Positions 5,315 through 33,795 of a DNA stretch of 44,632 bases are shown here, piece after piece. Below the pieces are notes generated by a model. That model made no database searches. It was not told the origin of the DNA and saw only the letters and a program-made list of their open reading frames with translations. The position numbers and the translations under genes are program-made. How positions within the stretch are numbered: position 1 is the stretch's first letter; each line of letters begins with the position of its first letter. The stretch is from assembly GCA_903835325.1 (NCBI GenBank), contig CAILMU010000005.1, positions 1 to 44,632 on the forward strand, given 5' to 3'. Source of the DNA: an uncultured Candidatus Micrarchaeota archaeon (GTDB lineage: Archaea > Micrarchaeota > Micrarchaeia > Anstonellales > Bilamarchaeaceae).

Positions 5315-5734
5315 ATGCGGATAATCAGGATGAAGAGCGATATCGCGAAAGAGAGGATGCGCGCATTGATGGATGAAATCGATGCGATTGCGATAAAGAG
5401 CGATACCGTACGCTCGGGAGAAGAGACCGAGCTCGCTTATCATCTCGCGAAAAAATCATTCGAAAACAAGAAAAACATCGCGCGTTCGCTCCGATACGAA
5501 TTCCTTCTCTGGCTGACCGGTAAGAACGACATAAAATCCGCCATGGGGATGAGCGCGCCGAAGGATTCGGCGAACACGGAGACGGGGGAGTTCTTGTTGG
5601 TCGTATTCGCGGACGAGCGGAAAAAATCAGATGAGGAAATCGCTGGGATTTTCAACGCAAAACTGCTTCCTCTTGGATTGGAGAAAAAGTCCGATGCCTT
5701 ATCGCTCGAACGGATATCGCTGTCGCGGATCTGA
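5315..5734 (+). CDS. cgi121: KEOPS complex subunit Cgi121-like
   Basis: At 139 aa it is the right size. NIARSLRYEFLLWLTGKNDIKSAMG parallels the conserved Cgi121 core (..EILVRASGQRQIHEAI..), and the C-terminal LERISLSRI parallels LEKIALIEL. The comparison is from memory and was not aligned. Confidence 0.55.
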   Translation: MRIIRMKSDIAKERMRALMDEIDAIAIKSDTVRSGEETELAYHLAKKSFENKKNIARSLRYEFLLWLTGKNDIKSAMGMSAPKDSANTETGEFLLVVFADERKKSDEEIAGIFNAKLLPLGLEKKSDALSLERISLSRI

Positions 5735-5759: not shown

Positions 5760-7496
5760 TCATATCCCTAGCTGCTTCTTCAGGGCATCCTGGTCTATCG
5801 GTATCTCTATCCCCAGAACCTTGTGGATGAACATGAACATCTCTACGATCTTGGATTTGTCCTTCGTTATCTTCTCCGCCATCTGCTTGATGGTGAGCTC
5901 TTTGCCTATCAGCTCGTAGAACATCAGCCCTTCCTTGCCGTAGCGCTTGTACACGGCATAGCCGTCCTCCCCATACTTCTTGCGCACATCCGCCCGGGGC
6001 GCCGGCTTAATTATGACCATGCCGTTCTGCATCATGAAATCCACGGTCTCTTTCACAGTATAAAGAGGCATGTCGAGGGCGAGCGCGATATCTATCATGT
6101 CGTTCTTGCCATCCATCCGGTCCAGAATCTTGCCCCCCTTTTCCCCGTATTTCAGCATTATCTTGGCTTTCATCTGCATCGATTTCACAAAATCCAGGGG
6201 CGCCTTGATGGGCGTCTCAAGCGGCGATGGCACCGGCCCCGCGCCTTCTGCCATCTCCTCCCCTTCGATCATCGGATTGAAGCCGGCCGCGCTCTCCTTG
6301 GACTCTTCGGCAGGGGGCGGGACCTCGCCCATCGCCGTCCTGCCTGCGGAAGGTTGCGTCCCTCCAGGGGGAGCTTTGGGGTAATCAAGCTTTATGATGC
6401 CCTGCTCGTCCATGAAATCCAATATCTCGACCAGTTTAGATTCGGTCAGGCCCGTCTCGCGCATTATCTCTTCGGCAGTGCGCTGGCCGTCTATGAGCGT
6501 GTACACCTGGAGACCGACGTCCCCGTATTTATCAGATATTATCTTCTCGACCGGGCTCATGCCCCCTGCCTCGGCACCGGAACCTCCGGCGCCGCCGGCT
6601 TCCGGCTGCTCAGAAGGCGTTATCTCCTCTTCCCCGGTGGCAGCTTCCCCGGAGTCTTCAGGCTTCTCGGATTCGATTTCGATCCCGGATTCTTCAGGCG
6701 TCTTTTCTTCCTCTTCCGCCGGAGCTTCTTCCGAGACCTCTTCCTCGTTCGTCTCGCCTTCTTCTTCCTTCCCGCCCCTCTCCGCGCCTTCAGTGGCCTC
6801 TCTTTCGCCTTCGACTTCCTCTCTGTCGCGTTCGGCTTCGGCCCCTTCCTCGTTGCTGATCGGTCTTATCTCGTCCTCTTCTTCGATCGGCCTTATCTCG
6901 ACATCTTGCTCGGCCTTGGCTTTGCCGGCCTCGCGGCCTTTCATGCCCTTCCTGGCAGGTTTCGGCTCCTCCTCTTCTGGGAGTATCGGGGCGATCTCAG
7001 GCGCTAACTCTTCCGAGATACCCTTCTCGGGCGCTTCCTCTTCGCGTTTCTTCACCTTCGCGCCTTTCTTCTTTGAGAACGGGATCTCGGGAGCGGGCTT
7101 TTCGGCTTCGGCCGCCTCTTCCTCCTCGGGAATCTCCGGTCCGACAGGCTGCTCTTCGGCTGGCTGCTCCTCGGCCGGCGTTTCCTCGCCGCCAAGCTCG
7201 AAGCGCTCCTGCGGGATGTTCTGGCCCGGCCCCTCATGCCCGCCTTTTTGTTTCGCGCCTGCAGGCTCCAATTCTATCATGCCGGCATCGCGCATGTAAT
7301 CTATTATCTGGGCGAACAGGCCCTCGTCCATGCCGAGGTCCTTGCGGAGCTCTTCCGTGGTCCTTTTCCCTGTTATCGCCTTGTAGACCTGGAGGCCCAC
7401 TTCGCCGAATTTCTTGAGAAGCATGTTTTGATTCTTGAACCGCTGCAAGGGCCCCTTCTCGTGTTTGATGATCTTATAATCAGCGCCGTCTGCCAT
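5760..7496 (-). CDS. Acidic protein with four winged-helix-like modules and a ~230-aa Glu-rich linker; function unknown
   Basis: Four ~50-aa modules share the pattern YG-x-x-G-x-x-(V/I/F)Y-x-x-I-x-G...(D/E)(F/Y)M-x-x-x-G(I/M)I. Examples are FGEVGLQVYKAITGKRTTEELRKDLGMDEGLFAQIIDYMRDAGMIELE and YGDVGLQVYTLIDGQRTAEEIMRETGLTESKLVEILDFMDEQGIIKLD. The ATG at 7496 (MADGADYKII) is preferred over the GTG at 7511. Confidence 0.75.
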   Translation of the reverse strand: MADGADYKIIKHEKGPLQRFKNQNMLLKKFGEVGLQVYKAITGKRTTEELRKDLGMDEGLFAQIIDYMRDAGMIELEPAGAKQKGGHEGPGQNIPQERFELGGEETPAEEQPAEEQPVGPEIPEEEEAAEAEKPAPEIPFSKKKGAKVKKREEEAPEKGISEELAPEIAPILPEEEEPKPARKGMKGREAGKAKAEQDVEIRPIEEEDEIRPISNEEGAEAERDREEVEGEREATEGAERGGKEEEGETNEEEVSEEAPAEEEEKTPEESGIEIESEKPEDSGEAATGEEEITPSEQPEAGGAGGSGAEAGGMSPVEKIISDKYGDVGLQVYTLIDGQRTAEEIMRETGLTESKLVEILDFMDEQGIIKLDYPKAPPGGTQPSAGRTAMGEVPPPAEESKESAAGFNPMIEGEEMAEGAGPVPSPLETPIKAPLDFVKSMQMKAKIMLKYGEKGGKILDRMDGKNDMIDIALALDMPLYTVKETVDFMMQNGMVIIKPAPRADVRKKYGEDGYAVYKRYGKEGLMFYELIGKELTIKQMAEKITKDKSKIVEMFMFIHKVLGIEIPIDQDALKKQLGI

Positions 7497-7552
7497 CTCA
7501 ACCACTCGCACATCGGGTAAGGATCGTTTGGTAAATGAATATCATCAGAATC

Positions 7553-7560
7553 TTTATTAA
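7553..7560 (+). promoter_or_regulatory. TATA-like box (tttattaa) for the gene starting at 7583
   Basis: It spans -30 to -23 relative to the ATG at 7583, inside the 86-bp divergent intergenic region 7497-7582. Confidence 0.4.
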
Positions 7561-7582
7561 CATACTCAATTTATATAAGCCC

Positions 7583-9310
7583 ATGGAGTTCGACGAGCTA
7601 CTGATAACCACGGGTGTCGATGCGCTCGTGCGCCTGATCCGCGAAAAAGGGAAGATCGAGCTTGATGAGGCTTCGTCGCTCCTGAACATCCCTCCCGAGA
7701 CCCTGCAGGAGTGGGCGCGCGTCCTAGAAGAGGAGGGCATAATCAAGCTGGAGTACAGGCTCACCAAAGTCAACCTTGTCTGGCTGAAGCCGACCGAAGA
7801 GGAGATTATCTCCGAGAAAGAGTCTTTCCGGGAAGAGAAAGGCGGCCTCGAGAAGGAGGTCGATGCATTCCGGGGCAGGACCATCGAGCAGGGGAAAGAG
7901 ATAAGCGACCTGAGGCAGTCGTTCTCCGAGTTCTATTCGAAGGCTTACCCAAGGATCGAGAAGCTGGAGAAGGCGGTATCAAGCGGCTCAGCGCCCTCCG
8001 CATCCGCTCTTCCGGCCGGGCAACGCAGGCCCGAGGAAGTGATCGCCGATTATTCCGGGAGATTGGAGCGCTTCGGCGCGGACATCGATTCCATCAGGGG
8101 AGCCCTCGGCGGCATCAGGAGCGACATCGAGAGCGTGGGGATAGAGCGCAAGGCGAAGGATGCGGCAGACCGGATGGAGAGGATGGATTCCATCAGACAG
8201 GAATTCAGCGCGCTCGAGAAGGAATTTTCTGAAGTCAAGAAGAAATCCGCAGGCGCCACGCCATCCGAAGGCGCTATGCCGAGCTCTGCCGAATTCAGGA
8301 AGAAGTTCGATGGGATAAAGAAGGACGTCGCATCCGTGAAAGCCAAAAGCGCGCAGATCCGCGAGGACATGATAAGCCTGCACGAGAGCTCCGAGATATT
8401 GAAAGGCGTCGCTGAATCGATAATGGGGAGCGAGGAGAAGGTGCAGGGCATCCAGGATGAATTGGATTCATTGAACAAGCAGTCGGATGCTCTCCTGGAG
8501 AAGGCGAATGCCATATCCGAAAAAGTCAAGGAGAGCGCAGATATCTCGGAACGCCTTGCCGGAACCATCACGACGGCCAAAGGCGTCCTGACCCGCTTCC
8601 CCACCCAAGCGAAGGTGATGGAGGAGCTGGACAAGATGAAGGCCATCGAGAGCAATCTGCTCGAGAAGACGGATGCCATGGAGGGCCTCCTCAGCGCCAC
8701 AGGGGGGCGGGCTATGAGCGTCAAACAGCTCACGGATACCACCAAGAAGATGGAGACCAAGGTCGGTGAGATGCGCGCAGAGATAGAAGCGCTCGAATCG
8801 AGCCTCGAGGACGAGAAGGCGACCTATCTCGCGTTCCAGAAAATCAAGGAGCGCATCGTGCCCTCCATAGAAGGATACCAGAAGCAGATAAGCGGAATGG
8901 AGAGCGAAATCGGCAAGATACAGATAGACGCGGTCAAGCAGAAGGAGTCCCTGAAGCAGGACAGCGAGAAGATACAGCAGATGCTCAAGGAGCCCGGCAC
9001 CGTGGAAGCGATGAAGGTCGTCGGGGAGATAGAGGTGAAGAGGAAGGAGCTCGATGAGATAAAGCAGACGCTGGACGAGCTGTCGGACACGTCCGACAAC
9101 CTCACGAAAAGGATAACCCTGCTCTCGCAGCAGGCGAAGCTGGTCGAGATACGCGCAGGCCCGGCGGCTCCGGCAGGACCTGCAGAGACCGAGAACAAGA
9201 AAGAGGAGATCCGCCATCAGCTGGAGCTGAGCGAAGCCGAGGAGCTCGAATTCCGCAGGAAGCGCGAGGAGCTCAAGAACCTCATCAAGAAGCTCTGGGA
9301 GAGCGGATAG
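7583..9310 (+). CDS. Protein with an N-terminal winged-helix module and a long coiled coil; first gene of the pilus-like operon
   Basis: The N-terminus MEFDELLITTGVDALVRLIREKGKIELDEASSLLNIPPETLQEWARVLEEEGIIKLEY resembles the modules of the divergent neighbour (compare ..EQGIIKLDY). The remaining ~500 aa are heptad-like and rich in E, K and S. The ATG at 7583 is preferred over 7535, which would leave only a 23-bp gap. Confidence 0.75.
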   Translation: MEFDELLITTGVDALVRLIREKGKIELDEASSLLNIPPETLQEWARVLEEEGIIKLEYRLTKVNLVWLKPTEEEIISEKESFREEKGGLEKEVDAFRGRTIEQGKEISDLRQSFSEFYSKAYPRIEKLEKAVSSGSAPSASALPAGQRRPEEVIADYSGRLERFGADIDSIRGALGGIRSDIESVGIERKAKDAADRMERMDSIRQEFSALEKEFSEVKKKSAGATPSEGAMPSSAEFRKKFDGIKKDVASVKAKSAQIREDMISLHESSEILKGVAESIMGSEEKVQGIQDELDSLNKQSDALLEKANAISEKVKESADISERLAGTITTAKGVLTRFPTQAKVMEELDKMKAIESNLLEKTDAMEGLLSATGGRAMSVKQLTDTTKKMETKVGEMRAEIEALESSLEDEKATYLAFQKIKERIVPSIEGYQKQISGMESEIGKIQIDAVKQKESLKQDSEKIQQMLKEPGTVEAMKVVGEIEVKRKELDEIKQTLDELSDTSDNLTKRITLLSQQAKLVEIRAGPAAPAGPAETENKKEEIRHQLELSEAEELEFRRKREELKNLIKKLWESG

Positions 9311-9358
9311 GGAGCTAAGTGATAAGGCATATAGCAGGATATCCTGGTGATTATCGAT

Positions 9359-10954
9359 ATGGCCGGTGCAAAAGACAATGAAAAAGCGAGGACGGACAGG
9401 GAGACTGACCCGAATGGCGAGATGCAGGGGCCGGCGGTCGCCGTTCCAGCAGGAACAGGTGGAAAACCAACGCTCACGACCTACTCCTTCAAGAGCGAAG
9501 GCCTTCCGGTCGAAGTGAAGATACTCCGGGGCACTGATTATGTCCCGCATTACGATATCTCGATACCGGGGATCGCCGAAGGCACGAAACTCATCCTCGA
9601 GACGAAGCTGAAAGGCGAGCTCGTCACGGAAGTGAAGCTGGATATCAGCGAGATGCTGGACCCAAAAAGGTTCGAAGAGGTGAAGGCGAGATTCCTGCAA
9701 TCTGCAAAGAGGATAATCACCCGCAACTTCCCCTCCCTGGCAGACGACAAGAAGGAGATACTCGCAGTCTTCATGCTCCAGAACACGCTTGGCCTGGGCG
9801 AGATGGAGGCGCCGCTTGCCGACGAGCAGCTGGAAGAGATAGTGGTCAACAACGCCCATGACCCGGTCTGGGTATACCACAAGACATTCGGATGGTGCAA
9901 GACGAATATCCGGATAAAGAGCGAGGACATGATCTATGATTACGCATCCACGATAGCGAGGAAGGTAGGGCGGCAGATAAACGTCCTCAACCCAACGCTC
10001 GATGCGCACTTGTCCACGGGAGACCGTGTGAACGCGACGCTCTTCCCCATTTCGAGTTTCGGGAACACGATAACGATAAGGAAATTCTCCAAGAACCCCT
10101 GGACGATAACGAGGTTCATCAAATCGAAGACGGTCTCCCCGGAGGTCGCGGGCCTCATATGGCTCTGCATCCAGAACGAGCTCTCCCTGCTGGTCACCGG
10201 AGGCACCGGAAGCGGGAAGACGTCGTTCCTGAATGCCATGTCAGGCCTCATACCTGCCAACCAGCGCATCGTCACTATCGAAGACACGAGAGAGCTCACG
10301 CTCCCGTCCTTCCTCCATTGGGTCCCGATGACGGTGCGCGAGCCGAACCCGGAAGGCAAAGGCGAGGTGACGATGCTGGATTTGATGGTGAACGCGCTCA
10401 GGCAGAGGCCCGACCGCATCATCGTCGGGGAAATCAGGCGCCAGAGGGAAGCCGAGGTCATGTTCGAAGCCATGCACACCGGCCACAGCGTCTATGCGAC
10501 ATTGCATGCGGATAACTCGGACCAGACGATTTCCAGGCTCACCAACCCTCCGATAAACATACCGCGCGAGATGCTGGACGCGCTTGCCGGGCTCGTCGTC
10601 ACGTTTAGGCACAGGAGGCTCAATATCCGCAGGGTGCTCGAGTTCTCCGAAGTGACATCCAAAGGCGATGCGAACGTCATCTACAGGTGGGACCTGAAGA
10701 GCGACAAGATAAAGCTCGTCGGCGAAGCGAGGAGGCTTGTGGACATCCTATCGCTATATGCAGGGATGGACGAGAAGGACATCGAGGAGGATGTCGCCGA
10801 GAAGGCGGCCATCCTGAACTGGATGGTGAAGAACGATTACGACGATGTGGACCAGGTCGGGCGCATCGTTTCGCACTACAACATGGACCCGCAGGAGATA
10901 ATCGATGCGGCGGCAAAGAACAAGCAATGGGATTTCGGCAAGTCGAACTGGTAG
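9359..10954 (+). CDS. Type IV pilus/archaellum-type secretion ATPase (FlaI/ArlI/PilB/TadA superfamily)
   Basis: Walker A is VTGGTGSGKTSFLNA, Walker B/Asp box is RPDRIIVGEIR, and the His box is HTGHSVYATLHA. The N-terminal domain is typical of archaeal FlaI-like ATPases. The track start at 9347 is GTG; the ATG is at 9359. Confidence 0.9.
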   Translation: MAGAKDNEKARTDRETDPNGEMQGPAVAVPAGTGGKPTLTTYSFKSEGLPVEVKILRGTDYVPHYDISIPGIAEGTKLILETKLKGELVTEVKLDISEMLDPKRFEEVKARFLQSAKRIITRNFPSLADDKKEILAVFMLQNTLGLGEMEAPLADEQLEEIVVNNAHDPVWVYHKTFGWCKTNIRIKSEDMIYDYASTIARKVGRQINVLNPTLDAHLSTGDRVNATLFPISSFGNTITIRKFSKNPWTITRFIKSKTVSPEVAGLIWLCIQNELSLLVTGGTGSGKTSFLNAMSGLIPANQRIVTIEDTRELTLPSFLHWVPMTVREPNPEGKGEVTMLDLMVNALRQRPDRIIVGEIRRQREAEVMFEAMHTGHSVYATLHADNSDQTISRLTNPPINIPREMLDALAGLVVTFRHRRLNIRRVLEFSEVTSKGDANVIYRWDLKSDKIKLVGEARRLVDILSLYAGMDEKDIEEDVAEKAAILNWMVKNDYDDVDQVGRIVSHYNMDPQEIIDAAAKNKQWDFGKSNW

Positions 10955-11026
10955 CGTTAAAGGCCATGCAACCGTATATAATATTTGGTTGGGGTATGGT
11001 ATAGCAGTATCAAGGTGCACAAATAG

Positions 11027-12712
11027 ATGTCAAGCGGATTCGAGATGGCGGCCGATGAGGCCAAACGGCTGGAGAGGAAGGCGGTCGGCTACGCCCCGTA
11101 CAAGGGCAGGGGCGAGATAGCCTCGACGATAGACCTCGAGCCGAAGGATTATATCGACCTCACTTACCCCGATCTCCTGAACATGTACGAGCGGACCGAG
11201 AAGATCCTGAGCGCGATGGGGATGCTCACGGCCGCAGCTGGCGCAGCGGCGCCGGGGCAGGGCGCGATCATCGCTCCGAGCGCCAGAAGCGAGGAGGTCG
11301 AGAGCAAGCTCAAGGAGATAACGAGCGAGAGCCTCCAGAAGGCAGAGGAGATGGGGATGGAGCCCCTCTCAATGGCTCCGCCTCCGCAGAAAACCCCTGA
11401 GGAAGAGATCCGCGCGGCAGGCCCGGTGGAAATCGAGAAAGAGCCTGCCAAGATGGAGATAGAGTTCGAAGAGCATGCGGCCAAAGAGACAATCACGCTT
11501 GAGAAAGAAACCGAGAAGCCGTTGCTTCCGGCTCCAGAGAAAGAGATCACGCCCGAGAAGCAGTTTGAGATCCGCGAAGAGGGCAAGGAGACCGGACTCG
11601 AGGAGAAGCAGGTTGCGGAAGAGAAGAGGATGGAGGAGATAGGGAGAACTGAACGCATCAAGCCGGAAGCGCCCGCCCCCGAAACGCAAGAGACCATGGA
11701 GCAACCGAATCAACCTCTTGAGAAACGGATGATAATGGCGGCTGTCCCCCCGGCGCTCCGCGAGAGCCCTGATGAGGCCGCCACCAAAAGATATGACAAG
11801 ATAGAGGAGCAGATAATGGCGACCCTCGGCGGCGCCACGGATGAGGTCACCCTGAAGAAGAGGATGCTCGAGCTGACCAAGGAGCTCTTCAAGGAGAAGA
11901 GCATGAACCGCAGGGAGCAGATAAAACTGGAGATAACCGTCCTCAAGAACATGCTCACCCACGCGCAGGAAGGGGGGATGGGCAAACGGAAAGCCAGGAA
12001 GGATTCCGCTGCGGATGCGCATGGCCATGTCCTGGATACCATCATAAGCTCGCAGCAGGCCGAGATATCCCAGACCAAAGACACGATCATAGATTCCTAC
12101 AAGAAGCAGATAGCGCAGACGAAGAGCAAGTTCTACAGCGAACTTTCAACGCTCGACGACCCGCTCGAACGGAAGGGCGCCCTGGACAGGTTCATCTTCT
12201 CGCTGACTTCGCTCCTCGAGCAGCTTCCTGATGTGATAAAACGGTACGAGGATTTCGCAGCGAAGAAGCACGGGGCCGAGCTCGGGAAGCTCACGGATTC
12301 CCTTGACGAGGGCGAGAAGGATATGAAAGCGCGTGCGCGAGAGCGCATGGAAAGCATCCAGGGGGGATATGTCTCTGAGTTCGGCGTGGTGAAAGCGATC
12401 ATCGGGCGCGAGATAGACAACCTCATGGATGCGGCCGCCATGGATGTCCTTTCAGGGGCGCAGGCCTCTGGAGCGAAGGCGCCGGCCGGAAAGGACGCGG
12501 AGATACGCGAGACGGTCGATGAGATAAACAGGATGGGTGAGAGCGCCCTGCTCAGCTATTTGAACTCCAAAGACGCCGGATATTATAAGGAATACGAAGG
12601 GAAACAGGTATCCAAGGCCGAGGCTGTGATGAAAGCCAAGGCTTTGATCGGCATGGAGAAAGGGCTCGAAAAAGACACAATCGACAAATATTTCGGATTG
12701 GGGGCGATGTGA
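11027..12712 (+). CDS. Acidic, low-complexity and coiled-coil protein between the ATPase and platform genes; function unknown
   Basis: This 561-aa ORF has no TM segment. It has a PEKE-rich middle (EKEPAKMEIEFEEHAAKETITLEKETEKPLLPAPEKEITPEKQFEIREEGKE) and a helical C-terminal half. Its stop overlaps the next gene's start (atgtga/gtg). Confidence 0.7.
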   Translation: MSSGFEMAADEAKRLERKAVGYAPYKGRGEIASTIDLEPKDYIDLTYPDLLNMYERTEKILSAMGMLTAAAGAAAPGQGAIIAPSARSEEVESKLKEITSESLQKAEEMGMEPLSMAPPPQKTPEEEIRAAGPVEIEKEPAKMEIEFEEHAAKETITLEKETEKPLLPAPEKEITPEKQFEIREEGKETGLEEKQVAEEKRMEEIGRTERIKPEAPAPETQETMEQPNQPLEKRMIMAAVPPALRESPDEAATKRYDKIEEQIMATLGGATDEVTLKKRMLELTKELFKEKSMNRREQIKLEITVLKNMLTHAQEGGMGKRKARKDSAADAHGHVLDTIISSQQAEISQTKDTIIDSYKKQIAQTKSKFYSELSTLDDPLERKGALDRFIFSLTSLLEQLPDVIKRYEDFAAKKHGAELGKLTDSLDEGEKDMKARARERMESIQGGYVSEFGVVKAIIGREIDNLMDAAAMDVLSGAQASGAKAPAGKDAEIRETVDEINRMGESALLSYLNSKDAGYYKEYEGKQVSKAEAVMKAKALIGMEKGLEKDTIDKYFGLGAM

Positions 12713-13644
12713 GAGTGGGGGGCATGAGGGCAGGCGCAGTGGCTATAAGCGCGTTATCCAGCTCAGCGGCTGCGCCTCCGAAAAAGAAGAGCCCGCTCTT
12801 CTTCATCGCCGAGCTCCTGGCGCCGAGGTTCCCCGACCTCCGGCAGAAGCTGCGCCTCGCCGACATGAAGTCCGAACCGATCGAATATCTCGACCGGACG
12901 GTGTTCTCTTCTGTGTTCATCTCCGTCGCGCTCATAATCGTATCATATCTATTGTTGAAGGACCAGATACCGGCCTATCTCGCGGGCAACCTATCCCTCT
13001 TCCTGATAACTGTCCTGGGCCCGATAATCATCATTCCGCCGATTGTCTTCGGATACCTCATGCTTTACCCTGATGCCGCGATCATGAGAAGGCAGAAGGA
13101 GATAGATTATGAGATAGTATTCGCATGCAGGCATATCGCGATAGCCCTGAAATCTGGGATGCCCCTCTTCGACTCTTTCGTCGGGGCCAGTTCCGGATAC
13201 GGCGTGGTGAGCAAGGAGTTCGCAAAGATAGCGGACAAGGTGGTCCTCGGGGTCCCTGCCGCGCAGGCGATACGGGAGACCACGCAGGACAACCCTTCCA
13301 GATATTTCACCAGGGTCATGATGCAGATAGCCAACTCGCTCTCGAGCGGGGCGGATGTCGGCGGGTCCCTGGACAGCGTGCTGGACCAGATATCCAAGGA
13401 GCAGATGATATCGCTCCGGGAATACAGCCAGAAGCTGACGCCGGTGGTCATGTTCTACATGGTCTTCGGCATAATCGTGCCATCCCTCGGCGTGGTGCTG
13501 GCGACCGTGATATTCTCGGCCCTCAGCGGAGGGAGTTTCGGGTTCTCACGCGTGGTGCTCGTGCTGGTGTTCCTGCTGATAGCGGTCATCCAGTTCCTTT
13601 TCCTCGGCTACATAGACAGCTCGAGGCCGAAATACCTGATATGA
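12709..13644 (+). CDS. Pilus platform membrane protein with a single T2SSF domain (TadB/TadC/FlaJ-half-like)
   Basis: The T2SSF-type core is IALKSGMPLFDSFVGASSGYGVVSKEFAKIADKVVLGVPAAQAIRE...SLSSGADVGGSLDSVLDQISKEQ, flanked by TM helices. The GTG at 12709 overlaps the upstream stop; an alternative ATG is at 12724. Confidence 0.85.
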   Translation: MRVGGMRAGAVAISALSSSAAAPPKKKSPLFFIAELLAPRFPDLRQKLRLADMKSEPIEYLDRTVFSSVFISVALIIVSYLLLKDQIPAYLAGNLSLFLITVLGPIIIIPPIVFGYLMLYPDAAIMRRQKEIDYEIVFACRHIAIALKSGMPLFDSFVGASSGYGVVSKEFAKIADKVVLGVPAAQAIRETTQDNPSRYFTRVMMQIANSLSSGADVGGSLDSVLDQISKEQMISLREYSQKLTPVVMFYMVFGIIVPSLGVVLATVIFSALSGGSFGFSRVVLVLVFLLIAVIQFLFLGYIDSSRPKYLI

Positions 13645-13651
13645 TGGATTG

Positions 13652-14755
13652 ATGGAAATGAGCAGCGACAACGTTTTCGAGAAGGCCGGCAGGGTGTTCT
13701 TCAGCCGGGAGCGCATACGCGAGCTCGAGCGAGACCTGAACGCAGCGGGCATCAACATGCCTGCGGATTCGTTCGCAGGTTTCGCTGCCCTCGAGATAGT
13801 CATAATATCGGTCGTCCTGACGCTCCTGTTCCTCGTCTACCAGCCGGTCTATGGTTTCATCTCCGGTTCCATCCTCCAATTCATCCCGCTCGACAATCCG
13901 GCGATACTCGGGATCATACTCGCTTTGCTCGCGTTCATCCTGTCCATGATGATCGTGTATCTATCCACCATGACCTTGATCGCCACGTTCCTGACCATGA
14001 AGACCGAGGATCGGCGCAACAAGCTCGAGACGATGCTCCCGGATTTCCTGGGCCTCGTATCCTCCAACATCAAGGCCGGGATGACGCTGGACCAGGCGAT
14101 GTGGTACTCGGCCAAACCTGAGTTCGGGCTTCTGGCCGATGAGACCAAGTCCGCGATCAAGGGAAGCTTCAGCGGAGAATCGCTTGGCGTGTCGCTGGAC
14201 CGGCTGGCTATGAGGTTCGACTCCCGTACCTTCAGGCGGACCGTGCTCCTGCTGAAACAGGCATCAGCGACAGGCGGCCAGCTGACCGATGTATTGGAGC
14301 GCACATCGGAGGATGTCCGGAACACGAACACGGTGAAGAAGGAGATAGCCGCCTCGCTTGTGATGTACGAGATATTCGTGCTTTTCGCTTCCGTCGTCGG
14401 GACGCCTTTCCTTTTCGCCGTCGCTTATAAACTCGTCGAGATATTCGAGAAGATCGCCCCCCAGGCAGGCGCCGGATTGAGCGGAGGGGCGGGCGTAGGA
14501 GCTATCGGCGGGGTTTTCTCGTCCATCGCCTCCATAAAGGTGAGCGGCGGGATAATCAGCTCGGGCGATTTCCTTCTGTTCACGATACCGACGATATTCA
14601 TCACGGCCCTGATATCGTCTTTCATAGTGAGCGTGATTCGGACAGGGACAAGGAACCAGGGGATGAAGTATTTCCCGTTCGTCCTGGTGTGCTCCTATCT
14701 CGTCTACTGGTTGGCCGTAACGGTTATAACAGCATTGTTCTCATCATTTGCATAA
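13652..14755 (+). CDS. Second pilus platform membrane protein with a single T2SSF domain
   Basis: The core is LVSSNIKAGMTLDQAMWYSAKPEFGLLADETKSAIKGSFSGESLGVSLDRLAMRFDSRTFRRTVLLLKQASATGGQLTDVLERTSEDV, with flanking TM helices. The track start at 13649 is TTG; the ATG is at 13652. Confidence 0.85.
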   Translation: MEMSSDNVFEKAGRVFFSRERIRELERDLNAAGINMPADSFAGFAALEIVIISVVLTLLFLVYQPVYGFISGSILQFIPLDNPAILGIILALLAFILSMMIVYLSTMTLIATFLTMKTEDRRNKLETMLPDFLGLVSSNIKAGMTLDQAMWYSAKPEFGLLADETKSAIKGSFSGESLGVSLDRLAMRFDSRTFRRTVLLLKQASATGGQLTDVLERTSEDVRNTNTVKKEIAASLVMYEIFVLFASVVGTPFLFAVAYKLVEIFEKIAPQAGAGLSGGAGVGAIGGVFSSIASIKVSGGIISSGDFLLFTIPTIFITALISSFIVSVIRTGTRNQGMKYFPFVLVCSYLVYWLAVTVITALFSSFA

Positions 14756-14827
14756 TGATATTGATCAAGAGGTTTTGATATGGTTAGGAAGGAGAAAAAG
14801 GCTTCACGATCCGGAAACGGCGCGCGC

Positions 14828-15412
14828 ATGCCAAAGGCAGGGGGATACAGGAAGGGCCAGGCCATGATGGAATACCTGATGACCTACGGCCTCGCATTGT
14901 TCATCATTGTCGTAGTCATCGGCATTCTGGTGGCTGTGGTGCTTCCGATGCTGAACCCGCCGGACTCGTGCAACTTCACGCAGCCGGGCTTCAGCTGCAA
15001 GAAGGTCGTGGTGGCTGATAATCAGTCCTCGACGGCCGGAGATACAAAGATCGTCTTCCAGCTCAACAACGAAGCAGGGCGTGGTGTCAGCATATTCAAG
15101 GTCCTGTGCACCGAAGCGCCTATCGGGAATGTCCAGATGGGCATGATGAGCGTGCCGCCGTACACCTGGAGCATCTCTGACCCGGGCCTGGCGATTGCTG
15201 CCGGGGGATCGAAGAGCTTCGGCAGCCTGACAGCGAGCGATGTGAAGGCGAAAATCATCTGCCTCAAGCAGGACAACACTCCCGTCACCCTGGCTGTGAA
15301 CTCCAATTTCAAGGGGACCTTGGCGATCGAGTACAAATACGACGATGATGTGACTGGCGCACCGCACAGGATCGCGACAGCCACCATCACGGGAACCGTG
15401 CTCGGCGAGTGA
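14828..15412 (+). CDS. Archaeal type IV pilin-like protein (class III signal peptide)
   Basis: MPKAGGYRKGQAMMEYLMTYGLALFIIVVVIGILVAVVLP has a basic leader, G-Q at the predicted cleavage region, Glu at +5 from Q (QxxxE, DUF361-like) and then a hydrophobic helix. The ~150-aa beta-rich C-terminal domain has four Cys. The ATG at 14828 is preferred over 14780. Confidence 0.75.
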   Translation: MPKAGGYRKGQAMMEYLMTYGLALFIIVVVIGILVAVVLPMLNPPDSCNFTQPGFSCKKVVVADNQSSTAGDTKIVFQLNNEAGRGVSIFKVLCTEAPIGNVQMGMMSVPPYTWSISDPGLAIAAGGSKSFGSLTASDVKAKIICLKQDNTPVTLAVNSNFKGTLAIEYKYDDDVTGAPHRIATATITGTVLGE

Positions 15413-15423
15413 TGAACCGGACG

Positions 15424-15478
15424 CTTTTTGGTTTTTTATTATTTTTCTATTTTTTCTATTATTTATTTTTTTCATTTT
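15424..15478 (+). terminator. Oligo-T terminator tract after the pilin gene
   Basis: Five T5-T7 runs sit within 55 nt immediately after the stop (ctttttggttttttattatttttctattttttctattatttattttttt). A-runs at about 15552-15567 would give T-runs on the minus strand for the convergent gene. Confidence 0.5.
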
Positions 15479-15606
15479 AATTCGATATTTCTTGTTTTCC
15501 CAGCACTCCGAAAGCAGGGCTAGAGGCAGTATAGGGTCTTAAAGTATTCAGAAAAAATATAGAAAAAGCGCCATATCGAGCGCTTTCGCCCGCGTCGCAT
15601 GGCGCC

Positions 15607-16398
15607 TCACTTGCCGCATTGCTTCCCTTTGGGCTCCGGGGATGGGGGCTCGCTCGACCCGCACCTGAGATGGGATATCGTCCATGGCGAGACCGAAACA
15701 GACACTCTGCAGGCGCTTGGAAGATTGTGGGGGTTGAACGAGGGTTTCTTGTCATCCCAACCATGAACATTGCCTGGAATCGGGAACGTCTCTTCGTTGC
15801 CATCCCTCCGTTCCGCAGCCTGTTCCCCACTCTTGCAATAGACCCTCATGGGGGTCAGATGTCCGATGACCGTGCCGACCACATCGCCGCTTGGTGATAC
15901 CATGAATTCAGCGCTCGCACCGAAAGTGAAATGTCCGGTGGGAGTCGCCTGCAGGGGAAGTCCCATCTGATCTATGGCGCTATTTACATAGAAAGCTGCC
16001 ACTGAACCTTTGAGTACATATGACGGGCACTGCGGGATTGGAACCGGGGCTTTGGCAGACGCTTCTGGAGAAGTTGCTGCGGGCTTGAACGCCGCATACG
16101 CGTATCCGCCGCTCTTCTTGCTTTCGGTGGTTGTCTCAAGCGGGACATCCGATTTGATTTCCATGCCCTCGTTCTTCGGGCATAACGCATCCTGGCCCGA
16201 TTTGATGGAATTGACTTCTCGTTCGAGGCGGTCGAGTTTTTGATTCGCGCTCGCAAGGACGGCTGATTGGGTGCGCAACGTCTCGTTCAGGGTTTTATTC
16301 GATCTGCAGGATCCATAGGTGCTTGCAGCAGAACCTGCCAGAGAAATCGCTAAAACAGAACCGACTAATCGACTTGTCTTTCTAGTGTTTTCAACCAT
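15607..16398 (-). CDS. Secreted or membrane-anchored hypothetical protein
   Basis: It has an N-terminal hydrophobic segment (RLVGSVLAISLAGSAASTYGSC), a short coiled coil (NQKLDRLEREVNSIK), and a Cys-containing C-terminal domain. No family was recognised. Confidence 0.6.
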   Translation of the reverse strand: MVENTRKTSRLVGSVLAISLAGSAASTYGSCRSNKTLNETLRTQSAVLASANQKLDRLEREVNSIKSGQDALCPKNEGMEIKSDVPLETTTESKKSGGYAYAAFKPAATSPEASAKAPVPIPQCPSYVLKGSVAAFYVNSAIDQMGLPLQATPTGHFTFGASAEFMVSPSGDVVGTVIGHLTPMRVYCKSGEQAAERRDGNEETFPIPGNVHGWDDKKPSFNPHNLPSACRVSVSVSPWTISHLRCGSSEPPSPEPKGKQCGK

Positions 16399-26868: not shown

Positions 26869-28077
26869 ATGATAGTGACACGGATGTTCAGCGTTGAAGA
26901 ATTGTCAGACCTGAAAAGGTCGTATAAGCGCCTTGCCGATGAGATAGATAGAATCGGGAAGGGCAGATTCGAGAGCGCCCTGAGGCTTTCAGGGAAGCTC
27001 AAGGATTTGATGGCTGAGATAGAGGAGACGAATGAAAGGGAGAAAAGCCTGTACAACCCGGCCATGATAACCCGGATGAAGATAGCGAAGAGGGGCTTCG
27101 AGCTCTCCAAAAGCCTGCGGGAATTCGAGATAGAGGTGGCGGCCGGGTTCGAGAAGGGCGAAGTCAGCGAGGATGCCGGAAAACGGTTCATGTCGATAAC
27201 CAAGCTGATAAAGGTCGGGAATATCCAGAAAGCGAAGGATGAGTTCCGTTATTTCGAGAAGATAAACGAACTTGACAGAGACTATAAGGCGGCGGGGGAA
27301 GAGATACAGGATAAAGAAAAGCAGCTCCGGCGGGAGCAGGTCAGGGTCGAGAAGATGCTGGCTGAGATGGCTGAGATTGAGAAATCGGCCATTGATACCG
27401 GAAAGGCAATCCGGTACGAAGAGCTGTCGAAGGAGCTCGAGGAGATACAGGAGGTCAGGAAAAGATACGTCCATTCGGTACTCACGACCCCGGTCGCTGA
27501 GCTCCTTGGAAACCCGCAAAGATATCCCCTCAAAGAAGCCATATCTTCATACCCTGCAAAAGAGCAGCTAGATGAGCTGGTGGGATTTTTATCAGAATAC
27601 CCTGATTTCGGAAAATGCGATGCCGGGCAGCTCTGCGGATTCTTCGGGTACAGCGAAAAAAAGCTTTCGCATATCTGCCCTGAGACAACGAGATTCAAGA
27701 AGGCGGTGCTCGGGAACAGAGAATTTTTCGAAACGATATCCTCCCTGGATAAGAATGCATCCCTTATCACGAATGCGGAGGACCAGAAGATCCTTGACCT
27801 CATCGCCGGGATGGAAGAAGGCGCCGAAGAGATTGTCGGACGGATCGCTGTGATAAGCAAGGAGAAGGATGCGTGCAGGGAGGAATACGAGAAAAATGAG
27901 AGGATTAGGAAGAAAAGGGAGGAATTATCCGGATACCCCAAGGATGGATTGGAGGCCGAGCTGAAAGATATCGCGCGGCTTCTCGATGTGTTGCATTCGG
28001 ATAATCCTAAAACTGGCGATGAGAATAGGGGAGGGCTGTTCTCGATTTTCGGGCGATTATTGAAAAAAGGGGCATGA
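26869..28077 (+). CDS. Coiled-coil hypothetical protein (402 aa)
   Basis: The ORF starts 8 nt after the methyltransferase stop. It is helical and E/K-rich, with no recognised domain. Confidence 0.65.
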   Translation: MIVTRMFSVEELSDLKRSYKRLADEIDRIGKGRFESALRLSGKLKDLMAEIEETNEREKSLYNPAMITRMKIAKRGFELSKSLREFEIEVAAGFEKGEVSEDAGKRFMSITKLIKVGNIQKAKDEFRYFEKINELDRDYKAAGEEIQDKEKQLRREQVRVEKMLAEMAEIEKSAIDTGKAIRYEELSKELEEIQEVRKRYVHSVLTTPVAELLGNPQRYPLKEAISSYPAKEQLDELVGFLSEYPDFGKCDAGQLCGFFGYSEKKLSHICPETTRFKKAVLGNREFFETISSLDKNASLITNAEDQKILDLIAGMEEGAEEIVGRIAVISKEKDACREEYEKNERIRKKREELSGYPKDGLEAELKDIARLLDVLHSDNPKTGDENRGGLFSIFGRLLKKGA

Positions 28078-28110
28078 GCGAGGTTTATGCTCTGATACGG
28101 CGGAGCGGGA

Positions 28111-28725
28111 TCACCAGAACTTGACTTTGTTTATTCCGCGCTCGAAAACCTTTTCAACCTGCTCGAGCCGTCCGGGTTTTGTGGGCGTCACCGCACTAGT
28201 CTTCTGTTTGGATTCAGGGAAAATGGACTTGATGTCTTTCACCTTCCAATCATTTTCTTCGCGCTCGTACTGGATGCTGATTTCTCGCTTGAGATCCATC
28301 GGTTTGGAGCCTTTCTTTGCATAATCATCAAGAAGCGGAAGTTTGACGGTCAAAGTCATGCGGCAGCCATTTATATCGGCCTTCTCGAAATCGCAGCTTT
28401 TGATGCGCAATAGCTTCTTAGGCAGATCGGCATCGCCCTGATCGATTTCGAGCAATTGCCCGTTCAGAGCTTCACAATAACTTGCCTCATAATCCTTCAG
28501 GGTGCTCTTCATAGTATTTAGCATATCCGGCGGATTATGATACGATTTTGGATCCGATATCGATTCCTTGATTTCTTTCTGCGCGTATTTGACCCAGGAT
28601 TCGCAATCCTGGAACTCTTTCTCTTCTTTCGATTTGGCAATGCTGTCTTCGTATATGACTAACGCGGATGAAATGCCGATCGAACCACCAAAAAGAATCA
28701 TAAGTACTTTTGTTGATTTATCCAT
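28111..28725 (-). CDS. Membrane-anchored hypothetical protein (204 aa)
   Basis: The N-terminal anchor is KVLMILFGGSIGISSALVIY. The soluble Cys-containing domain is unrecognised. Local sequence is more AT-rich than the window average. Confidence 0.6.
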   Translation of the reverse strand: MDKSTKVLMILFGGSIGISSALVIYEDSIAKSKEEKEFQDCESWVKYAQKEIKESISDPKSYHNPPDMLNTMKSTLKDYEASYCEALNGQLLEIDQGDADLPKKLLRIKSCDFEKADINGCRMTLTVKLPLLDDYAKKGSKPMDLKREISIQYEREENDWKVKDIKSIFPESKQKTSAVTPTKPGRLEQVEKVFERGINKVKFW

Positions 28726-28824
28726 GCTAGGTCATCTCAAGTTACTATTTAGTATAACTGATTTATAAATCATAGGCCAGATGAAAGAGGTCTGATATCG
28801 TATCCGCGTGCCTGATATGGAGTA

Positions 28825-28834
28825 TTTATAAATA
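28825..28834 (+). promoter_or_regulatory. TATA-like box (tttataaata) for the gene starting at 28857
   Basis: It is centred about 27 nt upstream of the ATG at 28857. Confidence 0.4.
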
Positions 28835-28856
28835 TTAATACATAAATATCCTGTTC

Positions 28857-29969
28857 ATGACACAATATGACGGAAAGCTCTCGCTAGACTTAAGACTCAG
28901 CATATCAAGAGAAAGGGACCATACGGGTTCCCACGGATCATTCAAACTGGATATCAAGCAGGAGGACGGCACAGCGAAGACTTTCGAGGTATTCATCGTC
29001 CCGAAGGGGGATGTGATTGGCCTGGGAGAAGTGCGTCCGGACGGGATTTACGCCCAGAGCGGGATACCTGCGATACTCATGCCGATAGTCCTTCAGAAGA
29101 TATACTACCGCTCCAAGGGATATGACGATGAAGCCACGACATCCGCAGCGATGGTCTATGGCTCCGCAGTCCTGACCTCCGAGGATTACAGCAGGCTCGC
29201 AACTCTTCTCGGCCAGAAGACCGATGTCCTGGCGACGACATGCTCTTTGGAGGGCAACCAGGAATATTACCTTGAATGCCTCGGTTCCTATACCTCGAGT
29301 TACGCGGGCAACCGCTGGGTCAAGCTGGCCAGATCCTACGATAATATGGGCATGACCAGCGTATCATACGAGCTCGGAAGGGGGGTTCATGTCAGCAGGA
29401 CGGTCCTGGAGGAAGGGCCGATACTGAAGAGGGATTCGAACGGCGTCAAGACGGAGGTCGAACCCGCGCTCCGAGACGTTCTTCCGGAAGTCGTCAGCGG
29501 CCTCGAGACCATTGCGCATTCGCTCGAAAACCAGAAAGGAACGATTTGCGTCAGTGTCCGAGACCATGCGCTGATGCGCGCGCTTTACCTGTTATCCGAT
29601 GATCTCGTAGAAGGAAGCCCAGTCGTGTTCCGGGACGGCAATTATGGCAAAGGCGGTTCCGATATCGAATTCCATTGCAACAGCGCCAGGTATATCAATT
29701 CGGTCCTGAAAAACCTGCGCGTCGATCTCACCCGCGAGCATGATGCGGTCAAGCAGGTGCTCACCGCAGCGAAGAAGGTCTATGGGGAGCTCAGCGGCGG
29801 GATGTCGTTCCGCGGACTTCTTGAATCAGGTAAGGATATCACCCCTGAGGAGGCCAAGGGAGTCATCAACCAGATGGAGCGCCTTCAGCGGATGAATGAG
29901 CATTATCGTAGGGCAATAACCGGTGTGCCGAAAAAAACCCCCGGAGTATCACGTCAAAATTCCCCATGA
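28857..29969 (+). CDS. Hypothetical protein (370 aa)
   Basis: The ORF is long and clean, with no recognisable motif. Its last 104 nt overlap the 3' end of the convergent J-domain gene. Confidence 0.6.
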   Translation: MTQYDGKLSLDLRLSISRERDHTGSHGSFKLDIKQEDGTAKTFEVFIVPKGDVIGLGEVRPDGIYAQSGIPAILMPIVLQKIYYRSKGYDDEATTSAAMVYGSAVLTSEDYSRLATLLGQKTDVLATTCSLEGNQEYYLECLGSYTSSYAGNRWVKLARSYDNMGMTSVSYELGRGVHVSRTVLEEGPILKRDSNGVKTEVEPALRDVLPEVVSGLETIAHSLENQKGTICVSVRDHALMRALYLLSDDLVEGSPVVFRDGNYGKGGSDIEFHCNSARYINSVLKNLRVDLTREHDAVKQVLTAAKKVYGELSGGMSFRGLLESGKDITPEEAKGVINQMERLQRMNEHYRRAITGVPKKTPGVSRQNSP

Positions 29970-31923: not shown

Positions 31924-32011
31924 TTGTGTGATTGGATTTAAAAGTGTGTTGTTTGAGCGGATTTCGTGGGGTTGATGGTAGCCAACGATTTTCGGATGAA
32001 TGATATGAAAA

Positions 32012-32033
32012 GATTGAGATTCGGGGCTTGGGC
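32012..32033. repeat. Weak, degenerate copy of the tRNA-His T-arm region
   Basis: gattgagattcggggcttgggc aligns with tRNA-gene plus-strand positions 33730-33750 (gaccgagaatcggactcgggc). That gives 16 matches, 5 mismatches (mostly transitions) and a 1-nt gap. It lies in the intergenic gap before the DUF4256 gene. Confidence 0.25.
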
Positions 32034-32080
32034 AGCGTACAAATCGGCAAGTTTATTTAGATGATCCGGATAGGTAATTC

Positions 32081-32665
32081 ATGCCGCAAGGAGCATCTAA
32101 AGGCAGAACTAAAATGGGATTGCTGCCAGAACAGCGTGAAGGACTGCTCAGGGCATTGAAAGCCCGTTTTGAGAAAAATATGTCCCGTCATACAGGCTTT
32201 GAATGGGCAAAAATACAAGCAAGGCTGGAAGCTGATACTGAAATATTATGGTCCCTCAATGAGATGGAAAGAACCGGCGGCGAGCCGGATGTGGTTGGTT
32301 TTGACAAAAAGACGGGCGAGTACATTTTTTATGATTGTTCGGCGGAAAGCCCTGAAGGCCGCAGAAGCGTCTGTTACGACCGTGAAGCGTTAGAGGCAAG
32401 AAAGGAGAATAAACCGAAGAATAACGCGATTGATATGGCGGCTGCCATGGGAATCGAGCTTGTGACTGAAGAACAATATAGGGAGTTGCAGAAACTTGGA
32501 GATTTCGATACGAAAACGCAGAGCTGGCTGAAAACACCAACTGACATTAGAAAACTCGGCGGCGCCATCTTCGCCGATCGTCGCTACGGCCATGTATTCG
32601 TGTATCACAACGGCGCAGAATCCTACTATGCCGCTAGGGGGTTCCGCGGCTCGATACAGGTTTGA
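32081..32665 (+). CDS. DUF4256-family protein
   Basis: LKARFEKNMSRHTGFEWAKIQARLEA...LWSLNEMERTGGEPDVVGFDKKTGEYIFYDCSAESPEGRRSVCYDREALEARKENKP...GAESYYAARGFRGS matches my memory of the mainly bacterial DUF4256 family closely. An alternative start is at 32114. Confidence 0.8.
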   Translation: MPQGASKGRTKMGLLPEQREGLLRALKARFEKNMSRHTGFEWAKIQARLEADTEILWSLNEMERTGGEPDVVGFDKKTGEYIFYDCSAESPEGRRSVCYDREALEARKENKPKNNAIDMAAAMGIELVTEEQYRELQKLGDFDTKTQSWLKTPTDIRKLGGAIFADRRYGHVFVYHNGAESYYAARGFRGSIQV

Positions 32666-32673
32666 ATTTGATA

Positions 32674-32692
32674 ATAAGGGTCATGACTGAGA
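32674..32692. repeat. Degenerate direct repeat of the tRNA-His 3' end plus flank (att-like)
   Basis: ataagggTcatgacTgaga matches 33719-33737 (ataagggCcatgacCgaga) at 17 of 19 positions. Both differences are C/T transitions and the orientation is the same. Confidence 0.45.
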
Positions 32693-32735
32693 GATATAAA
32701 AATATTTATGTGACTACTTTTGTGCAAATTCTGCT

Positions 32736-32775
32736 TTGCCCCCTAAATGTTTAAAAATGCTTGCCCCCTAATTGT
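32736..32775 (+). promoter_or_regulatory. Two 15-bp direct repeats (ttgccccctaaatgt / ttgccccctaattgt) just upstream of fic
   Basis: They match at 14 of 15 positions, start 25 bp apart (32736 and 32761), and end 5 nt before the ATG at 32780. Confidence 0.3.
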
Positions 32776-32779
32776 AATC

Positions 32780-33652: not shown

Positions 33653-33671
33653 AATATTCCCATATTGGATT

Positions 33672-33695
33672 AAAACTACATTTTTATGTAGTTTT
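33672..33695. terminator. Perfect 10-bp hairpin with flanking A/T tracts (aaaactacat-tttt-atgtagtttt)
   Basis: It sits 20 nt after the fic stop. The symmetric A-tract/T-tract stem-loop resembles a bacterial-style bidirectional intrinsic terminator. Confidence 0.45.
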
Positions 33696-33723
33696 GAAGG
33701 TAATATTGGATAAGGAAGATAAG

Positions 33724-33795
33724 GGCCATGACCGAGAATCGGACTCGGGCCTAGAGGGCCACAGCCTCTCACGCTACCATTACGCCATCATGGCC
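33724..33795 (-). tRNA. tRNA-His: tRNA-His (anticodon GUG) with genomically encoded G-1
   Basis: The manually folded sequence is GGCCATGATGGCGTAATGGTAGCGTGAGAGGCTGTGGCCCTCTAGGCCCGAGTCCGATTCTCGGTCATGGCC. An 8-bp acceptor includes G-1:C73, the His identity element. The D-stem is GCGU/GCGU with two G-U pairs. The anticodon arm is AGAGG-CUGUGGC-CCUCU. The T-arm is CCGAG-UCCGAUU-CUCGG. No CCA is encoded. Confidence 0.85.

Follow-up and report, generated by a model that had tools for sequence, protein, structure and literature searches.

We analyzed a 44,632-nucleotide stretch of DNA (here called the window) from the genome of an uncultured archaeon of the Micrarchaeota, within the DPANN archaea, and examined in it a cluster of seven genes, g1 to g7, at positions 5760 to 15480. 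We propose that this locus encodes the Micrarchaeota form of a Tad/Epd-like type IV filament machine, in which the acidic protein g4 is an integral part and two further proteins, g1 and g2, form an accessory scaffold or regulator module, a reading that we hold at a probability of roughly 0.55. The features of the cluster are the following.

5760 to 7511, minus strand: g1, 583 amino acids (aa) from a GTG start, 578-579 aa from the ATG at 7499 (list of open reading frames, ORFs)
7512 to 7582, no strand: divergent intergenic region between g1 and g2, 71 bp, AT-rich (read from the sequence)
7583 to 9310, plus strand: g2, 575 aa, in a frame open from 7535 (ORF list)
9359 to 10954, plus strand: g3, type IV filament assembly ATPase, 531 aa (ORF list and Pfam)
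11027 to 12712, plus strand: g4, 561 aa, acidic and soluble (ORF list)
12709 to 13644, plus strand: g5, platform protein with one T2SSF domain (T2SSFa)
13649 to 14755, plus strand: g6, platform protein with one T2SSF domain (T2SSFb)
14780 to 15412, plus strand: g7, prepilin with a class III signal peptide
15413 to 15480, plus strand: T-rich tract with several runs of 5-7 T (read from the sequence), a putative terminator

Homology shows that g3, the g5/g6 pair and g7 make up a type IV filament machine with an ordinary core. The g3 protein scored 132.6 bits against the Pfam T2SSE model (PF00437; cutoff 24.9), 275 bits against the NCBIfam FlaI model (cutoff 550) and 196 bits against a TadA-like model, and it matched A. 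fulgidus GspE2 (1.6e-61), FlaI (1e-56) and CpaF (1e-50; 175 bits for CpaF structures) in the PDB. By these matches g3 is an ATPase of the FlaI/CpaF/archaeal GspE clade. Both platform proteins exceeded the Pfam T2SSF cutoff (PF00482; 25.2 bits), g5 with 63 bits and five predicted transmembrane segments and g6 with 49 bits and six. Alignment placed g5 on positions 5-249 of 555 of the NCBIfam ArlJ model and g6 on positions 237-437 of 484 of the UpsF model, so that on model coordinates g5 corresponds to the TadB-like, N-terminal half of ArlJ/UpsF and g6 to the TadC-like, C-terminal half of UpsF/ArlJ. Judged by these alignments, the platform is divided in the way known from TadB/TadC or EpdJ/K, and its two halves were found in most of 80 related loci (g5 in 72, g6 in 71).

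The pilin gene completes this core. The g7 protein, which has a single transmembrane segment and no Pfam match, carries the class III signal peptide YRKG followed by QAMMEYLMTYGLALFII, with a predicted cleavage site between G26 and Q27 (between positions 14857 and 14858); cleavage there would leave QAMMEYLMTYGLALFIIVVV as the mature N-terminus, in which Glu is at +5, and beyond the helix lies a conserved pair of Cys. Across 64 homologous ORFs the N-terminal motif KGQ-A(A/V)MEYL(M/I)TYG(L/W)A is near-invariant, with few variants. A motif scan of the window returned g7 as the only ORF with a class III signal peptide, once a false positive inside a permease had been set aside. The locus therefore holds the T2SSE ATPase, polytopic T2SSF platform and class III signal-peptide pilin that define the type IV filament superfamily, and the platform in two single-domain proteins beside a CpaF/FlaI-like ATPase that defines a Tad/Epd-like subclass.

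An earlier note, made by inspection of the sequence, had described a type IV pilus-like locus with a co-directional string from g2 to g7, tiny or overlapping gaps, a T-rich end and g1 divergent from it, and all of this was borne out. The seven ORFs were recovered, and an independent public gene call of an identical contig has the same seven genes, of 578, 591, 531, 561, 309, 365 and 210 aa. From g2 to g7 the spacers are, in order, 48, 72, -4, 4 and 24 nucleotides (nt), and T-richness downstream of the g7 stop, at about 15425-15475, makes the tract at 15413-15480 a likely archaeal oligo-T terminator of the operon. At the other end, two TATA-like elements lie between g1 and g2, TTTATTAA (7553-7560) and TTTATATAA (7570-7578), and their spacing, compared with that of archaeal TATA boxes, suggests a promoter role. 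The note was also right that the window lacks a prepilin peptidase and minor pilins: among its 30 other proteins we found no further pilin, and no window protein matched a prepilin peptidase (PibD/FlaK/EppA, Peptidase_A24).

We then computed the composition of the three large proteins. Each of g1, g2 and g4 has an isoelectric point (pI) of 4.6-5.1, 14-18% Glu and no predicted transmembrane segment, so the earlier view of three large, acidic, soluble proteins stood in these respects; the accompanying description of all three as coiled-coil/winged-helix proteins did not, as only g2 has a coiled coil and g4 has no winged helix. That the three fall outside the characterized pilus and archaellum accessory families was upheld by Pfam, NCBIfam and PDB profiles and, for g2 and g4, by Foldseek, none of which gave anything significant.

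The protein most firmly tied to the machine is g4. Its AlphaFold2 (AF2) model predicts an N-terminal helical domain (about residues 1-110), a disordered acidic linker of some 125 residues (112-237) and a C-terminal helical bundle (248-556) modeled at a predicted local distance difference test score above 90, and it contains no winged helix. Within the family, whose members range from 210 to more than 1,100 aa, only the N-terminal ~70 aa are conserved while the remainder varies; this part has the motif F.E...AK.LEKK...P.EY.D.TY.DLLN.YER..KI, of which divergent relatives keep F.E...A+.LEK...P.E...Y..L.N.Y.+..KI, and it could be aligned across 72 loci. No Pfam or NCBIfam model matched g4, its family alignment found no sequence-profile match in the PDB, and a Foldseek search with the model found no matching PDB fold (best E 0.6). 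When the g4 profile was run exhaustively with HMMER against 1.84 billion representative proteins, only 131 matched, and an extended profile (A4) aimed beyond Micrarchaeota returned the g4 family only; so far the family has been seen only in genomes labeled Micrarchaeota or carrying no label.

Gene order sets g4 beside the ATPase with few exceptions. In 67 of the 71 loci with enough flank, the gene immediately 3' of the ATPase gene belongs to the g4 family. All five distant members recovered by the exhaustive search directly follow a T2SSE gene, among them the one in locus L081, where the platform genes have been relocated upstream and the ATPase-g4 unit is intact. Because of this adjacency, we infer that g4 is an integral and essentially obligatory member of the operon. 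The g4 stop overlaps the g5 start in the window (the spacer of -4 nt) and overlaps or abuts the start of the platform gene across the family loci, and g4 appears to be translationally coupled to g5. Ahead of g4, at 10974-10982, is a TATATAATA element, which might mark an internal promoter.

The g2 protein begins with a canonical winged helix (residues 2-67), followed by about 500 aa of long helices and coiled coil; the AF2 model has an H-b-H-H-b-b topology and then helices of 50-90 residues. We collected 165 homologues of 560-598 aa, and those with a named organism are all from Micrarchaeota, including Bilamarchaeum and 'ainarchaeum'. Conservation in the family (alignment A2) lies in the winged helix and in the final ~20 residues, EFRRKREELKNLIKKLWESG (9245-9310, residues 555-575), where F, L, I, L and W do not vary. 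These residues are net basic in an otherwise acidic protein, and by hydrophobic moment they rank within the top 2% of windows. The invariant, basic and amphipathic C-terminal helix (residues 553-573) resembles a membrane-targeting or docking helix. Foldseek likened the winged helix to ROK, ArsR, MarR and AspA and the remainder to Rad50 and MukB coiled coils, none of it significant (E of 0.01 or more), and the g2 family alignment gave at most low-complexity or coiled-coil matches against PDB sequence profiles.

Several names that database matches suggested for g2 were rejected. SMC, Rad50 and ASRP matches reached 40-43 bits against cutoffs of 300-730 and covered coiled-coil regions only, and g2 has no P-loop or ABC-type head of such ATPases, its N-terminus being the winged helix. 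The likeness to DUF7310 (21 bits against a cutoff of 40) is at the level of coiled coils. We regard as coiled-coil noise the labels 'chromosome segregation ATPase', 'SbcCD' and 'FlaC' on g2 homologues, a precomputed CCDC39 match on the g2 of the window, and a sub-threshold Snapin match in the Pfam/NCBIfam scans of g1, g2 and g4.

The g1 protein (pI 4.57, 18% Glu) resembles beads on a string, with four winged-helix-like modules at about residues 20-85, 316-374, 440-505 and 509-579, parted by variable, disordered, low-complexity linkers rich in Glu and Pro that extend to 230 residues. The four modules had been proposed from the sequence beforehand, and cross-detection confirmed them: a hidden Markov model (HMM) of module 1 found modules 2, 3 and 4 at 7e-20, 7e-8 and 2e-6, and on this measure the modules are genuine internal repeats. 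Module 2 is nearly invariant (alignment A3, 30 Micrarchaeota sequences). Pfam gave weak winged helix-turn-helix matches over three modules, all below gathering cutoffs, and the g1 family alignment found no relative among PDB sequence profiles. Comparison of g1 with g2 by hhalign gave E 0.018 and a probability of 2.6% over 32 residues, and the g1 module HMMs reached an i-E of 0.004 on g2 over 16 residues only; a common origin of the two winged helices is not established by these values. Assignment to a winged helix-turn-helix transcription factor family (MarR, ArsR, TrmB) was tried and dropped, with no score above cutoff and no basic recognition helix.

The association of g1 and g2 with the machine is looser than that of g4. 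It was assessed in 80 loci with ATPase orthologues (60-81% identity), searched by tblastn and profile HMMs; almost all are labeled Micrarchaeota or sublineages, a few only 'archaeon', and every homologue whose source name gives an organism is from Candidatus Micrarchaeota, including Bilamarchaeaceae, Anstonellales and 'ainarchaeum' bins. A co-directional g2 lies directly 5' of the ATPase gene in 41 of 67 loci (ATPase identities 62-81%), 36-48 nt ahead of it on the same strand and without an obvious terminator, and g1 is the divergent neighbor of g2 in 40 of the 49 loci that bear g2. The earlier expectation that the large proteins co-occur with the ATPase and platform genes accordingly held for g4 and only in part for the other two, and the three are not equivalent. 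In L086, g1 (minus strand), g2, the ATPase gene, g4 and the two platform genes are clustered between KaiC-like/Thy1 and DCD/PTH2 flanks, which differ from the usual context of genes for ribosomal protein S8e and methionyl-tRNA synthetase (MetRS) on one side and ApgM on the other. L081, with an L086-type context, has the order platform genes, ATPase, g4, then g2 (minus) and g1 (plus), the six genes still being adjacent. Because the cluster recurs in the L086 context and survives the L081 rearrangement, pure synteny is an unlikely explanation of its linkage, and g1/g2 form a frequently associated, probably functional module that is dispensable or relocatable.

Some of these loci show further genes near the cluster. 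Directly 5' of the ATPase gene, L008 (2152-9777) and L026 (3878-9505) encode giant predicted secreted proteins of 2,541 and 1,875 aa with low Glu/Lys content, the one in L026 parting g2 from the ATPase gene; they may be adhesins or cargo of the filament system. In the same position, the divergent Micrarchaeota loci L068 (7017-9980) and L072 (5487-9911) have a co-directional, Glu/Lys-rich ORF of 987 and 1,474 aa, respectively, where g2 went undetected, and these ORFs may be a very divergent or replacement g2. A KaiC/RecA-like ATPase of ~220 aa (PF06745), which recalls ArlH by size and family, lies three genes from the g1/g2/ATPase cluster in L081 (12628-13287, minus strand) and L086 (690-1358, plus strand); none is near the cluster in the window.

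From these features we propose the following mechanism. A hexamer of the g3 ATPase would drive the split membrane platform g5/g6, which would polymerize one major pilin, g7, after cleavage of its class III signal peptide by a prepilin peptidase presumably encoded outside the locus. The conserved N-terminal ~70-aa domain of g4 may dock on the ATPase or the platform, as the invariant adjacency, the start/stop overlap and the conserved motif suggest, with the variable acidic linker and the helical bundle projecting into the cytoplasm. The g2 protein may oligomerize into a long coiled-coil strut or ring, perhaps anchored to the membrane or the motor by its C-terminal helix, and g1 may be a flexible multivalent adaptor whose four acidic winged-helix modules bind proteins, not DNA. 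Together, g1, g2 and g4 would give the motor a scaffold, set its position or regulate it, in the manner of ArlX/ArlCDE in the archaellum or UpsX in Ups pili. A cytoplasmic scaffold or regulator role, which the earlier note had put forward, is still the best reading, drawn from co-occurrence and cytoplasmic character. Most likely the filament attaches these small archaea to their hosts or to surfaces, as is generally proposed for DPANN pili (PMC11291902).

Several observations weigh against this proposal. In about a third of the loci g1/g2 are absent from the 10 kb upstream of the ATPase gene, close relatives without them upstream being L008 (OY970229.1), L024, L035, L040 and L044, and in L026, L067, L071, L076 and L077 they are 4-8 kb away from it; g1 and g2 are therefore not obligatory neighbors of the machine and might act elsewhere. 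The housekeeping genes for S8e, MetRS and ApgM are co-conserved in the same gene order, and therefore inherited synteny explains part of the g1/g2 signal. The monomer model of g2 is of low confidence (predicted template modeling score 0.31), the amphipathicity of its C-terminus could be mere coiled-coil periodicity, and our literature search found no report demonstrating that Micrarchaeota form a pilus from this locus. In a rival reading, g1 and g2 are unrelated to the pilus and form a separate Micrarchaeota-specific module, for example for chromosome organization, the cytoskeleton or division, kept next to the pilus operon only by the conserved gene order of these small genomes, and g4 alone of the three belongs to the machine. 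We judge this unlikely. In its favor, g2 does not directly precede the ATPase gene in 26 of 67 loci; in L067 and L076 the g1-g2 pair is inverted, 4-8 kb from the ATPase gene, and has kept its place next to the S8e gene (in L071 and L077 g1 alone is seen there); L083, L085 and L087 have the ATPase-g4-platform genes without g1 or g2; and the co-conserved housekeeping neighbors and the weak matches of g2 to SMC, Rad50 and ASRP coiled coils point the same way. Those SMC/Rad50 scores, however, are far under their cutoffs (43 versus 300 bits and more) and g2 has no ATPase head, while its position 36-48 nt before the ATPase gene, on the same strand and with no obvious terminator between, and the persistence of the six genes together in L086 and L081 argue for a tie to the machine.

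The winged helices could instead couple the filament machine to nucleic acid, for example in DNA uptake or exchange that feeds a nucleotide-poor symbiont. Competence pili import DNA, DPANN archaea often lack nucleotide biosynthesis, which favors this idea, and the g2 winged helix superposes on the DNA-binding domains of ROK, ArsR, MarR and AspA, with Foldseek E values of only 0.02-0.1. The positional analogue UpsX promotes DNA exchange (PMC3892339). In every family member, however, the putative recognition helices are net acidic, at -3 to -5 in g2 (mean -3.8) and -2 to -4 in module 2 of g1 (mean -3.5), and DNA binding by either protein is therefore unlikely. Whole-protein pI values of 4.6-5.1 and the lack of a ComEC-like channel or DNA-processing gene in the operon also speak against a link to nucleic acid, which the earlier note had raised and which we now disfavor as very improbable. 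Still less credence goes to g1 as a divergently transcribed winged-helix regulator of the g2-pilin operon: the divergent arrangement, classic for such a regulator and its target, around a shared 71-bp AT-rich intergenic region and weak Pfam matches to winged helices of TrmB, ArsR, MarR and TFIIE-alpha type would suit that role, whereas four tandem modules set apart by up to 230 residues of acidic disorder are unlike known regulator architecture, the recognition helices are acidic, and all those Pfam matches are below gathering cutoffs. Finally, instead of a long adhesive pilus, the locus might build a short pseudopilus or piston that secretes or takes up material across the S-layer, like a type II secretion or Com system, with the accessory proteins adapting the machine to that task. 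This we consider improbable. It would account for the one pilin gene with no minor pilins in the operon and for the giant secreted proteins beside the ATPase gene in L008 and L026 as possible cargo (or adhesins), but no secretion substrate is conserved in the locus, and single-pilin operons also make true pili in archaea.

A bolder form of the scaffold proposal is that g4, g2 and g1 build a cytoplasmic superstructure, seen only in Micrarchaeota so far, that turns a Tad-like motor into a specialized host-contact organelle. Here a membrane-tethered coiled-coil cage of g2 and the g1 adaptor would recruit cargo or signaling partners to the motor, and g4 would be a new type of obligatory subunit of type IV filament machines. 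We offer this tentatively and think it unlikely as a whole; if true, it would be an unprecedented architecture for the cytoplasmic face of such machines and would give a handle on how cluster-1 DPANN engage their hosts. The scaffold or regulator reading itself bears on wider questions. Cultivated pairs of host and symbiont exist for only a few DPANN lineages, Micrarchaeota among them, and of the clusters near the window that are not housekeeping genes, this operon ranks with the best conserved in their small genomes. To an otherwise standard pilus motor it contributes three protein families without known relatives, g4 looking like a fixed subunit. If g1, g2 and g4 do build the cytoplasmic face of the machine, they would offer a new solution to the scaffolding and regulation of archaeal type IV filament motors, a question on which until now only the archaellum proteins ArlX, ArlH and ArlCDE have borne. 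All three would then also be concrete targets in Micrarchaeota co-cultures.

The window genes are otherwise chromosomal and include those for MetRS, ribosomal protein S8e, phosphoglycerate mutase and transporters. Two small ORFs border the cluster. Between the S8e gene and g1, a 139-aa ORF (5315-5734, plus strand) without a Pfam match keeps its position in 31 related loci. Between the pilin and phosphoglycerate mutase genes, a 263-aa ORF (15607-16398, minus strand) with a hydrophobic N-terminus matched no Pfam or NCBIfam family and has no homologue in the 80 related loci; it looks like an insertion specific to this genome. Farther away, GC content falls to 0.43-0.44 at 32000-34000 and at 28001-29000, compared with about 0.54 elsewhere. 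The former contains genes for a DUF4256 protein (32081-32665, E 2e-91) and a Fic-domain protein (32747-33652), with tRNA-His (33723-33794, minus strand) right next to them, and might be an islet acquired horizontally at a tRNA gene; the latter holds a 204-aa orphan ORF (28111-28725, minus strand). A DUF7118 protein of 402 aa (26869-28077, plus strand) lies within unusually strong GC and AT skew, and in a 685-aa protein (29866-31923, minus strand) only an N-terminal DnaJ domain was recognized.

Among known systems, the locus shares with Tad (CpaF/TadB/TadC) and Epd (EpdL/EpdJ/EpdK) a FlaI/CpaF-type ATPase, a platform in two single-T2SSF proteins and a short pilin that has Glu at +5 after its class III signal peptide. 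It differs from them in having no TadZ/CpaE, secretin or pseudopilins, and in having a lineage-specific soluble protein, g4, between ATPase and platform and two more proteins upstream. The comparison with the Ups locus of Sulfolobales (upsX-upsE-upsF-upsA-upsB) concerns mainly g2, since UpsX is encoded directly upstream of the ATPase, as g2 is. UpsX, the product of the leading ups gene, is a lineage-restricted cytoplasmic protein of 79 kDa with no recognizable domain; pili are assembled without it, it promotes the exchange of DNA in Sulfolobus, and part of it associates with the membrane on induction (PMC3892339). By position it is the closest analogue of g2, although no search related it in sequence to any protein of the locus, no winged helix or coiled coil is reported for it, both of which g2 has, and the Ups platform is fused, with nothing between it and the ATPase. 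In the archaellum, the coiled-coil or soluble proteins ArlX (FlaX) and ArlC/D/E surround a FlaI-type ATPase as a cytoplasmic ring or scaffold (PMC5019145), and by analogy this scaffold would be the closest functional model for g2, g4 and g1. Unlike ArlX, which has an N-terminal transmembrane anchor, the three have none, and none matched an Arl family in Pfam or NCBIfam. An archaellum identity for the locus itself was rejected: the FlaI score is 275 bits against a cutoff of 550, the platform is split, and neither the locus nor the window has archaellins or matches to ArlF/G, ArlH or other Arl accessory proteins.

Large coiled-coil proteins (CCPs; orthogroups NAR1_03220 and NAR1_01690) have been described beside a CpaF-like ATPase and TadC in pilus loci of cluster-2 DPANN and Undinarchaeota, were detected in proteomes and are proposed to act in host interaction (Hamm et al. 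2024, PMC11291902). These loci come from Nanohaloarchaeota, Woesearchaeota, Pacearchaeota, Nanoarchaeota, Aenigmarchaeota and Undinarchaeota, not from Micrarchaeota (cluster 1), and the CCPs are called nucleoporin- or sigma-1-like with no mention of a winged helix (PMC11291902). The coiled-coil g2 directly 5' and the helical g4 directly 3' of the ATPase gene are like these CCPs, by description only. Lineage-specific cytoplasmic arCOGs are likewise known in archaeal pilus loci (Makarova et al. 2016, PMC4858521), among them arCOG07564, an intracellular coiled-coil protein of the halobacterial clade 4F pilus locus with a presumed regulatory role, to which g2, also a coiled-coil protein in the pilus locus of one lineage, can be likened by description. 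Given UpsX, arCOG07564 and the CCPs, the earlier note went too far in treating large soluble coiled-coil proteins as absent from every described locus. For Micrarchaeota, the genome papers remark only that 'type IV pili are present', and our literature search found no description of accessory proteins like g1, g2 or g4. What is new here is an essentially obligatory subunit family, g4, with two commonly associated cytoplasmic families, g2 and g1, which extends the observation of DPANN pilus loci with large coiled-coil proteins to cluster-1 DPANN.

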